A model generated the notes under the pieces. It ran no database searches. It was not told the origin of the DNA and saw only the letters and a list, made by a program, of their open reading frames with translations. Positions 17,038-18,701 of a stretch of DNA of 64,000 nt are shown piece after piece (positions within the stretch are counted from its first letter, which is position 1; the number at the start of each line of letters is the position of its first letter). This stretch comes from a virus (Duplodnaviria; Caudoviricetes): the IMG/VR virus record IMGVR_UViG_3300032038_000037, positions 1-64,000 of that record; one strand, 5' to 3'. The position numbers and the translations under genes are program-made.

Positions 17038-17043
17038 CAAAAA

Positions 17044-17131
17044 CGGAGCCTGAAGGATTTGAACCTTCGCGCGATTTCTCGCCTACATCCTTAGCAGGGA
17101 CGCCCCTTCAACCAAACTTGGGTAAGGCTCC
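17044..17131 (-). tRNA. tRNA-Ser(GCT)
   Basis: Cloverleaf with long variable arm; loop CTGCTAA. Confidence 0.93.
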
Positions 17132-17154
17132 AACTTAATTTTATAAAACTTAAA

Positions 17155-17227
17155 TGGCTTAGGGCGGAATCGAACCACCGACGCAGGAATTTTCAGTCCC
17201 TCGCTCTACCAACTGAGCTACCAAGCC
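17155..17227 (-). tRNA. tRNA-Phe(GAA)
   Basis: Cloverleaf; loop CTGAAAA. Confidence 0.95.
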
Positions 17228-17231
17228 TTAG

Positions 17232-17305
17232 TAGGCGAAAATAGATTTGAACTATCGACCTCGGAGTTATCAGCTCCGCGCTCTAACCACCTGAGCTATT
17301 CGCCT
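17232..17305 (-). tRNA. tRNA-Ile(GAT)
   Basis: Cloverleaf; loop CTGATAA. Confidence 0.95.
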
Positions 17306-17347
17306 AGAGTGAGCTGTGAGAGATTCGAACTCTCGACCGCTTGATTA

Positions 17348-17949
17348 CTTTACCACATCGTTTTTACATTGTGGTCTGGACTTTCTCTTAACCATAGAAT
17401 TATTCCGTAGGTTCATCGTGTAAAGTCTCTACACATAAGGTTTTTTCAAATGAATAATCAGAAGCAAGTGTAATATTGGATTGTTTGTTTTTTGGTAAAT
17501 CTTTTCTAATTTGAATAACTTTTCGATTACCTATTACTTCAATAGGAATAAGTACAATTTCATTCCATGGAGCTAAATAAAAACACATATAGTCTACTTC
17601 ACTTTCATAAGTGTGATGTATCCCATATTTTGTATGATAAGTACTGCTAGAACATGGACAAGAAATTGAATTATTTTCAGTTATTTGGCTACAATATTTA
17701 ATTTGAATTTTATTTAATTTTCCATTAAATTCTGCAATTAAATCATATCTAGCATTATCACCAAAAGGAACCGATACTTGTATTCCTAATTCTACAAATT
17801 TTGCTAATGCAATAGCTTCTCCAATATTACCCTTATCTTTACTATTCATTCTCCTTCCTCTTGCTCGGGATTAGCATATCATAGACTTAGCTTTCCCCGA
17901 ATTAGCGATGTTTTCACTCATAAGTTTCCATATGAGGCTCCTAATTTTA
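17348..17949 (-). mobile_element. Group I self-splicing intron
   Basis: P1 with U.G at the 5' splice site; core elements AATTCGGGGAA, AATCCCGAG, GTAGAGACTTTA, AAGAGAAAGTCC; terminal G. Confidence 0.88.
17400..17849 (-). CDS. Group I intron-associated PD-(D/E)XK homing endonuclease (I-Ssp6803I-like)
   Basis: KGNIGE...PFGDNARYDLI...KIQIK motif; lies inside the intron. Confidence 0.85.
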   Translation of the reverse strand: MNSKDKGNIGEAIALAKFVELGIQVSVPFGDNARYDLIAEFNGKLNKIQIKYCSQITENNSISCPCSSSTYHTKYGIHHTYESEVDYMCFYLAPWNEIVLIPIEVIGNRKVIQIRKDLPKNKQSNITLASDYSFEKTLCVETLHDEPTE

Positions 17950-17994
17950 AAAGTCAAGTGCTCTACCATCTGAGCTAACAGCTCATTTGCATAA

Positions 17995-18067
17995 GGTGAC
18001 CGATGGGATTCGAACCCACAACATGTGGATCCACAATCCACTGCTCTACCAGTTGAACTACGGTCAC
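17995..18067 (-). tRNA. tRNA-His(GTG)
   Basis: Cloverleaf; loop TTGTGGA; C73. Confidence 0.93.
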
Positions 18068-18069
18068 AG

Positions 18070-18143
18070 TGACTCCAGTGGGATTCGAACCCGACATTAC
18101 GGCCTTGAAAGGGCCGTGAACTGACCATTTGTTCGATGGAGCC
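18070..18143 (-). tRNA. tRNA-Glu(TTC)
   Basis: Cloverleaf; loop CTTTCAA; bulge in T stem. Confidence 0.88.
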
Positions 18144-18341
18144 ATATGACATATCCCTCTAGTAGCCTATAAGATATGTCAAATTGTAGTTTAAGGTCTA
18201 GAGCTACCCTGGACCATAGGACTAATTATCATTAAAACCACCAGAGCGTTTGATATATAAACCTATAGAATATACGGTGGGGCGAAAGCTGTCGCATAAA
18301 CGTGAATATATACCCCCTCTATGGGCGCATTTTAATGATAA

Positions 18342-18414
18342 CGTCCCAAAAAGGATTCGAACCTTTGACACACGGCTTAGAAGGCCGTTGCTCTATCCCC
18401 TGAGCTACTGGGAC
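18342..18414 (-). tRNA. tRNA-Arg(TCT)
   Basis: Cloverleaf; loop CTTCTAA. Confidence 0.95.
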
Positions 18415-18417
18415 AAA

Positions 18418-18493
18418 TAGAGGTGGCGGGATTCGAACCCGCGATCCCGTGATCCCAAATCACGTATCCTAAGCCAAACTAGACCACACCTCT
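18418..18493 (-). tRNA. tRNA-Pro(TGG)
   Basis: Cloverleaf; loop TTTGGGA. Confidence 0.93.
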
Positions 18494-18499
18494 TAGTTA

Positions 18500-18688
18500 T
18501 TACATAAAACGAAAATAAATAAAAGTGGCTATTAAAACTAATAAGTAACTAATCCAAATCGGAGAAAATATCCAACTCCACGCCCAATCAATAACATTAC
18601 TTAATTTTAAAACAATAAAGACTATTGTCAACAAATTTATAAATAATATTCCACCATATGCACACGCAATATATTTGTCATCTTTCAT
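18500..18688 (-). CDS. Small membrane protein (two TM helices, IDWAWSWIFSPIW)
   Basis: Common phage transmembrane motif. Confidence 0.75.
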   Translation of the reverse strand: MKDDKYIACAYGGILFINLLTIVFIVLKLSNVIDWAWSWIFSPIWISYLLVLIATFIYFRFM

Positions 18689-18701
18689 TTCATTTTCCTA
18701 C

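Follow-up and report, generated by a model that had tools for sequence, protein, structure and literature searches.

The first 64,000 nucleotides (nt) of the 99,276-bp IMG/VR virus record IMGVR_UViG_3300032038_000037 (33% G+C), hereafter the window, carry an array of tRNA genes on the minus strand (17043-25425), for which standard tools identified 14 tRNA genes together with a ROOL RNA and an element resembling transfer-messenger RNA (tmRNA). Part of this array is a closely packed operon with the order His, Lys, Ile, Phe and Ser, in which a gap of 689 bp separates tRNA-His (17995-18067) from tRNA-Ile (17231-17305). This gap was found to hold a split tRNA-Lys gene, and the element that splits it is very probably a mobile IC3-like group I intron, residing in the only tRNA-Lys(UUU) gene of this phage and carrying in its L6 loop a homing endonuclease of the I-Ssp6803I family.

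The split gene was skipped by ARAGORN under standard settings and was recovered once introns were allowed. The 5' exon (17950-17984, minus strand) comprises nucleotides 1 to 35 of tRNA-Lys(UUU), namely the acceptor strand GAGCUGU, the D arm, the anticodon-stem strand CUUGA and the loop bases CUUU (C32, U33, U34 and U35). The 3' exon (17310-17347, minus strand) consists of 38 nt corresponding to nucleotides 36 to 73, with U36, A37 and A38 followed by UCAAG, the variable loop, the T arm, the acceptor strand and A73, and it has no encoded CCA. When joined, the exons form a flawless cloverleaf of 73 nt that is called as tRNA-Lys(ttt) by ARAGORN, and the acceptor, D and anticodon stems were found to covary in an alignment of 18 related pre-tRNAs described below. 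No second tRNA-Lys gene was found in the whole 99-kb record. A first-pass annotation, made from the sequence alone, had described this split gene and an insert of 602 nt (17348-17949), and all of its coordinates were confirmed as exact on the minus strand.

Due to repeats at the insertion site, junctions after the fourth, fifth, sixth or seventh base of the loop (k=4 to k=7) all give the identical mature loop CUUUUAA. The junction was placed between U35 and U36 because it is solely there that a U precedes the 5' splice site and a G ends the intron (omega-G, position 17348), giving a predicted ligated junction of GACUUU/UAAUCAAG. The same position had been proposed by the first-pass annotation. 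Junctions after the second or third base (k=2 or 3), resulting in Thr(UGU) or other anticodons, were rejected, as they have no omega-G and as the intron-less allele of a sister intron (locus L002, see below) is a tRNA-Lys. The placement between U35 and U36 holds on the U.G pair of the P1 helix, the terminal G and the identity of the joined exons as tRNA-Lys(ttt), with L002 as independent support.

Helices P1 to P9 of a group I ribozyme were mapped one by one onto the sequence of the window, and all of them were found to form in the insert (the coordinates that follow are on the minus strand). P1 (17938-17953) pairs exon bases C32 to U35 and the first two intron bases, U and A (17953-17948), with the guide UAGGAG (17943-17938) as C32-G, U33-A, U34.G, U35.G, U-A and A-U, the splice-site wobble being U35.G. 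P2 (17917-17936) is a hairpin capped by GAAA. In P3, the 5' strand (CAUCG, 17906-17910) has its partner CGAUG at 17414-17418. The P4-P5 domain (17865-17900) has P4 formed by 17900-17895 with 17870-17865 and the sequence AAA in the joining region J4/5, while its P5 motif GCUAAG...UAUGC resembles the 11-nt receptor of GAAA tetraloops. The 5' strand of P6 (GC followed by GAGG, 17857-17864) pairs with 17433-17440, and that of P7 (G, a bulged A and GACUU, 17423-17429) pairs with AAGUCC at 17378-17383. By analogy P7 would be the guanosine-binding helix, and its layout agrees with the P7 pseudoknot line of the seed alignment of Williams 2020 (bioRxiv 10.1101/2020.01.27.920355). The 3' part of the ribozyme is completed by the hairpins P8 (17390-17413) and P9 (17352-17375), the latter with ten pairs, one A.A mismatch and an AAAA loop.

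The Rfam group I model Intron_gpI (RF00028) was found to match the 5' half of the insert (17824-17956, model positions 5-158, 22.2 bits, E 0.003), the match being partial because an open reading frame (ORF) splits the ribozyme core. The 3' part of the ribozyme taken alone (17330-17470) gave no Rfam group I match, so this part stands through its alignment with relatives. Such relatives were collected in two ways: by the endonuclease protein, giving 54 IMG/VR loci, and by the 19-mer core GTGTAGAGACTTTACACGA, giving 31 IMG/VR loci and 29 contigs of bacterial metagenome-assembled genomes. Around most of the 31 IMG/VR loci, ARAGORN calls an intron-split tRNA. The collected relatives include introns of 175-200 nt with no ORF at the same tRNA position, one of which (L063:38-223) spans the whole of Intron_gpI (model positions 1-253 of 253, 44.9 bits, E 1.6e-10).

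The 18 pre-tRNAs of the alignment, including that of the window, were then scored for the canonical structure, with P7 counted explicitly as a pseudoknot because RNAalifold cannot draw the crossing of P3 and P7. A local hairpin (GUGUAGA/UUUACAC) that this program drew in place of P7 was dismissed as an artefact of that crossing. Standard pairs were found in 93.6% of 1310 cells, compared to 37-42% when the 3' partners were slid by 1-3 columns, and the covariation score was 0.568 compared to approximately 0.10; the observed measures were reached by none of 500 shuffles. Changes on both sides of a pair occurred in each of P2 (96.5% of cells paired, changes in 8 of 8 pairs), P3 (100%, 2 of 5 pairs), P5 (97%), P6 (98%, three pairs) and P8 (100%, 3 of 4 pairs), and in one of the six pairs of P4 (100%). 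The P9 region is badly aligned in this set and was compared by eye with L002, L061, L062, L068, L083 and L085.

All 18 sequences keep the U.G pair at the splice site, and the alignment column of the omega-G (G637) was invariant, while the pair between nucleotide 34 and the guide varied (GC in nine, UG in four, UA in three and CG in one). This variation follows the host tRNA, with G-C in Asn(GUU), U.G or U-A in Lys(UUU) and C-G in a single Lys(CUU). As the guide follows exon base 34 while U.G remains constant, the pattern fits a working P1. Wherever a column of the alignment is invariant in the family, the window carries the same base. The proposal that the insert is a group I intron was therefore borne out by the Rfam matches (partial in the window and full in L063), the helix map, the covariation and the omega-G.

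The ORF of the insert (17400-17849, minus strand; stop UAA at 17400-17402) is open and intact and encodes a homing endonuclease of the PD-(D/E)XK type of 149 amino acids. The encoded protein matches Pfam family PF11645 (PDDEXK_5) with 105.4 bits against a cut-off of 26.1 (E 3.2e-30), over residues 1-134 of the protein and 1-137 of the 138 profile positions. Its sole sequence match in the PDB is 2OST (I-Ssp6803I), with an E-value of 1e-4. An AlphaFold2 model of the protein (predicted local distance difference test score 84.9, predicted template modelling score 0.80) was searched with Foldseek, where the top four matches were chains A-D of 2OST (E 1.8e-10 to 1e-8, template modelling scores of 0.66-0.78), followed by a SPARDA nuclease, EcoRV and Hjc. 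Across 18 homologues, no variation was seen at K4, G7, D36, Q49 and K51 and almost none at E11, and the protein of the window has all six residues. D36 and Q49-x-K51 align with the YDL and QVK of 2OST, and these acidic and lysine residues are probably catalytic. A DNA search with the whole element against GenBank phages gave no match, and a protein search gave homologues at 36% identity or less only.

The first-pass annotation had also described the ORF as extending into the catalytic core, and this was found to be the case. From its start in L6, the ORF passes through P6', J6/7, P7, J7/3, P3' and the 5' strand of P8, with its stop in L8. The ribozyme core is read in one common frame by all intron-borne relatives, resulting in a C-terminus of ...LCVETLH(D/E), and this LCVETLH tail is missing from free-standing relatives. 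The overlap of ORF and core is old and conserved. The GAGG of P6 lies 7 nt before the ATG of the ORF and is likely to have a dual role as a P6 strand and a ribosome-binding site.

A presence/absence polymorphism was found for the sister intron L002, whose endonuclease is 69% identical to that of the window and whose next gene is likewise tRNA-Ile. The joined exons of L002 are identical over 73 of 73 positions to an intron-less tRNA-Lys in two other phage contigs, L087 and L088, with the upstream flank also shared. L087 and L088 are the natural empty site of the sister intron, showing that intron-less alleles coexist with it in nature.

With respect to distribution, six further IMG/VR contigs were identified with an intron between positions 35 and 36 of tRNA-Lys(UUU). 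In IMG/VR, introns of this family also occupy Lys(CUU), the corresponding loop position of many Asn(GUU) genes, and other tRNAs, with some members (L072, L078 and L084) located in tRNA-Leu(UAA) at the classical site. The window itself has a tRNA-Asn(GUU) gene (22448-22521, minus strand) and a tRNA-Leu(UAA) gene (21704-21788, minus strand), tRNAs that are the commonest hosts of the family in other phages, and both are uninterrupted. At L021:2875-3670, an intron-bearing tRNA-Lys(UUU) is followed 38 nt on by a second, uninterrupted tRNA-Lys(UUU), possibly a copy that is resistant to cleavage or is yet to be invaded. At L076:199-217 (minus strand) and L082:11422-11440 (plus strand), the 19-mer core was present, no split tRNA was found and the downstream sequence looks protein-coding, suggesting that the family may also occur in protein genes.

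Close relatives of the element were also present in public sequencing runs, in contigs of bovine-gut metagenomes and of one metatranscriptome; being contigs, these cannot reveal splice junctions and are thus silent on expression and splicing. One of these contigs (513 nt) has 18 differences over 17434-17946, and ORF-less versions were found in which 17435 is joined to 17858. A joint of 17338 to 17957 in these contigs was discarded, as it derives from an unrelated tRNA.

The anatomy of the insert, the covariation of its helices, the family membership of its protein and the presence/absence polymorphism at the sister locus are direct observations. The established chemistry of such introns makes the following course of events the most likely. 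The transcript of the tRNA operon would fold such that C32 to U35 pair with the guide UAGGAG in P1, and free guanosine bound in P7 would attack after U35. The terminal G (17348) would then take the place of this guanosine in P7. The anticodon stem, perhaps helped by a P10 of 3 bp (UUA with UAA), would keep the exons together for ligation into a normal tRNA-Lys. On some RNAs P6 may be open, allowing ribosomes to make the endonuclease, and their passage across P7 and P3' would disrupt the ribozyme fold. As the ORF covers P6', P7, P3' and half of P8, and the putative ribosome-binding site lies in P6, a given RNA molecule should be either translated or folded as a ribozyme, not both. By analogy with I-Ssp6803I, the endonuclease would act on co-infecting phages whose tRNA-Lys gene lacks the intron, recognizing and cutting the near-palindromic DNA of its anticodon stem-loop (CTTGA-CTTTTAA-TCAAG), with the intron being copied in during repair of the break (homing).

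A number of points weigh against this account. Rfam scores lie below the gathering cut-off of 50 bits, both for the window (22.2) and for the best ORF-less relative (44.9); at that threshold Intron_gpI gave no match in 12 loci with ORF-less relatives, the one full-length match of 44.9 bits being obtained at an E-value threshold. As described by Williams 2020, the Rfam model has no bacterial seed, and cut-offs of 18 to 20 bits were used in that work; the shortfall reflects the model and not a defining biological trait. P7 is invariant in all 18 aligned sequences and gives no covariation signal, and so is assigned by homology; the invariance of P7 and part of P3' is in part due to relatives having been gathered with the 19-mer from that region. 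The L9 loop is AAAA in the window compared to GAAA in relatives, and given the receptor-like motif in P5 a tertiary contact may be weakened. Passage of the ORF across P7 and P3' could disturb folding. An intron-less allele was found for the tRNA of L002 and none was found for the tRNA of the window itself. Lastly, splicing, the cleavage site and homing are inferred from the chemistry of the family and by analogy.

Some of these points would also be expected of a decayed intron, one that has lost splicing or splices poorly, leaving the tRNA-Lys effectively dead and only a selfish endonuclease gene maintained. In addition to the altered L9 loop and the overlap of the ORF with the catalytic core, tRNA genes that hold close relatives of the endonuclease but no ribozyme suggest that the loss of a tRNA is tolerated by phages. 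However, in the window all helices form and the family consensus is followed at all invariant columns, the exons keep a flawless cloverleaf in what is the sole tRNA-Lys gene of the record, and the in-frame overlap of ORF and core has been kept in diverged relatives, an argument for selection on both functions. Decay is thus considered unlikely.

Less probable still is that the endonuclease serves mainly as a weapon or as anti-defence, either by cutting the tRNA-Lys gene of the host or with the intron shielding a reserve of pre-tRNA-Lys from PrrC-like nucleases, ideas related to those raised in the first-pass annotation. tRNA-Lys(UUU) is a substrate of PrrC, and the DNA of the anticodon stem-loop, the presumed target, is conserved and may also occur in hosts. 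Furthermore, a 2026 paper reports that the free-standing endonuclease SegB in the tRNA cluster of phage T6 aids escape from a tRNA-cutting defence (PMC13096335). However, the mature loop of the window tRNA is an ordinary CUUUUAA with no protective change, no defence-related or counter-defence neighbour turned up among the ORFs of the tRNA array, and ordinary homing fully accounts for the family membership and the empty-site polymorphism. A link to PrrC and the cutting of host genes are speculation and draw no support from any result obtained here, while the cutting of intron-less alleles in competing phages is plain homing.

That the insert is an endonuclease insert with no ribozyme, removed by proteins or never removed, is barely credible. 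L040-L042 and Enterococcus phage EFP01 do have inserts between positions 35 and 36 that consist of the endonuclease gene only. However, the window has approximately 150 nt of additional conserved and covarying RNA that these do not have, and it aligns with introns of 175-200 nt, free of any ORF, that match the group I model of Rfam from end to end.

A tree of the endonucleases places the window and L002, with moderate support, nested among relatives that have no surrounding ribozyme. In L040:2950-3490 (also L041 and L042), a tRNA-Ser(GCU) is split in the anticodon loop by an insert of 446 nt that is nearly all PD-(D/E)XK ORF, and in EFP01 (KY549443.1, approximately 105.2-105.8 kb; L090:1432-1967) a tRNA-Asp(GUC) is split in the anticodon loop by an insert of 463 nt. 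Both types of insert have no room for a ribozyme because the homologous ORF nearly fills them. In the annotation of EFP01, a cultured phage, this ORF is a hypothetical protein and the split tRNA is unannotated.

A different layout, likewise with no ribozyme, was found around close relatives of the window endonuclease in L004 (2900-3460), L007 (2899-3466), L013 (2860-3490) and L016 (2807-3455), where a complete tRNA-Lys(UUU) is followed by the endonuclease gene and then, at the stop of the ORF, by an orphan tRNA 3' half starting from loop position 36-38. The same order occurs in L008/L009 (L008:660-1290), with the orphan half starting approximately 20 nt past the stop. In all of these the anticodon stem of the complete tRNA-Lys(UUU) differs from that of the orphan half, and in L016 a matching orphan 5' half was identified upstream, followed by a promoter-like sequence of the TTGACA type. 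Searches for empty sites of the cassettes of L016 and L004 found nothing except the contig of L004 itself. This layout may represent a 'cleave and replace' cassette, in which the endonuclease gene and its complete tRNA-Lys(UUU) sit within a resident tRNA gene and the target is replaced instead of being restored by splicing. It is possible, if doubtful at present, that the intron of the window is one state of a selfish element targeting tRNA-Lys that switches how its insertion is paid for, whether by a ribozyme or by a replacement tRNA. If true, this would constitute a natural 'cleave and replace' drive, with gain or loss of a ribozyme within a single endonuclease lineage.

Additional observations were made among these relatives. 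The endonuclease ORFs of L003, L004, L005/L006, L008/L009, L013, L014/15/17 and L054 have one or two in-frame stops in place of a Q, E or K of their homologues, suggesting phages with recoded stop codons, and a tRNA with a CUA anticodon lies nearby in L010. In L005:2833-2986 (and likewise in L006), the endonuclease gene is directly preceded by a tRNA whose anticodon loop is interrupted by a tRNA-like insert of 78 nt ending in CCA. An inverted repeat of 15 bp (CTTTTTGTACATTGT / ACAATGTACAAAAAG) surrounds the tRNA-Lys that precedes the endonuclease gene in L003:2880-3000 and would lengthen its acceptor stem. Elsewhere in the tRNA array of the window, the ROOL RNA (Rfam RF03087, 327.9 bits) is full-length at 24621-25222 (minus strand), and the tmRNA model matches 83 nt (51.2 bits) at 25261-25343 (minus strand).

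Endonucleases of the I-Ssp6803I type have been known since 2001, and the tRNA-fMet intron of Synechocystis PCC 6803 with I-Ssp6803I is said to have been described by Bonocora and Shub in 2001 and by Zhao et al. in 2007 (PDB 2OST). This system shares with the window a group I intron in the anticodon loop of a tRNA, an enzyme of approximately 150 amino acids of the PD-(D/E)XK type within PF11645, and 2OST as best fold match. I-Ssp6803I acts as a tetramer, its target being a pseudo-palindromic site of 23 bp in the anticodon region (PMC3384342), and the DNA of the tRNA-Lys stem-loop in the window has symmetry of this kind. The two systems differ in that the host in the window is a phage and not a cyanobacterium, in a protein identity of only approximately 20%, and in the overlap of the ORF with the ribozyme core.

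The ribozyme can also be compared with the IC3 ribozymes of Azoarcus tRNA-Ile and of tRNA-Leu(UAA) of Anabaena and other cyanobacteria, with which it presumably shares a small core of the tRNA type, the GAAA loop of P2, the AAA of J4/5, the CUAAG...UAUG of P5 and exons held by the anticodon stem. In contrast to these, it lies in another tRNA and at another position of the loop, and its L6 contains an ORF of 450 nt that extends into the core.

The first-pass annotation had regarded tRNA-Lys(UUU) as an unusual site for a group I intron, and this was found to be overstated given the six further Lys(UUU) contigs and the many Asn(GUU) examples described above. Moreover, the number of classes of bacterial tRNA introns was raised from four to 21 by Williams 2020, the seed alignment of which holds Lys.4Ug, Lys.3Ug and Asn.4Ug from bacterial genomes (with entries including Mpe6.Lys.4Ug and Pam37.Asn.4Ug). 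As Lys.4Ug is already present in that seed, the insertion site is not new. Like the intron of the window, Lys.4Ug interrupts tRNA-Lys after the fourth loop base; Lys.4Ug and Asn.4Ug share the rule of U(-1) and omega-G, and the core words AAUUCGGGGAA, GUAGAG-C-A and AGUCC are common to them and the window. The classes of Williams 2020 come from bacterial assemblies with a GC-rich seed, whereas the intron of the window is AT-rich, phage-borne and equipped with a homing endonuclease gene; phages and endonucleases are unmentioned in that work.

Among phages, all known introns were described as lying in protein-coding genes despite the many tRNA genes of phages in the review of Hausner et al. 2014 (PMC3984707). 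Devoto et al. 2019 (PMC6784885) later reported 'enigmatic' tRNA introns in Lak megaphages as the first of their kind. These likewise lie in phage tRNA genes but are unclassified, whereas that of the window is clearly a group I intron with an identifiable endonuclease. SegB, in the tRNA cluster of T4 and T6, resembles the enzyme of the window in being a homing endonuclease within a phage tRNA array and differs in being of the GIY-YIG family and not intron-borne (PMC13096335). Ribozyme-less relatives of the window enzyme, such as that of Pectobacterium phage My1, are free-standing like SegB. No paper on endonuclease-bearing group I introns in phage tRNA genes was found in the literature searched.

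The intron of the window is thus genuine but not exceptional. It belongs to a family of mobile introns, so far little described, in the tRNA genes of phages, and its novelty is modest. Together with its relatives, it shows that classical endonuclease-bearing group I introns colonize the tRNA arrays of phages and that in gut and rumen viromes they are no rarity. This family provides a clean natural series of guide retargeting among Lys(UUU), Lys(CUU) and Asn(GUU) at one loop position, and a conserved sequence, GUGUAGAGACUUUACACGA, translated as CVETLH, that doubles as ribozyme core and coding sequence. It also supplies new small homing enzymes of the PD-(D/E)XK type in addition to the single characterized I-Ssp6803I. 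Finally, the tRNA repertoires of phages are undercounted because standard tRNA finders miss split genes of this kind, and in the phage of the window the gene that was missed is its only tRNA-Lys.

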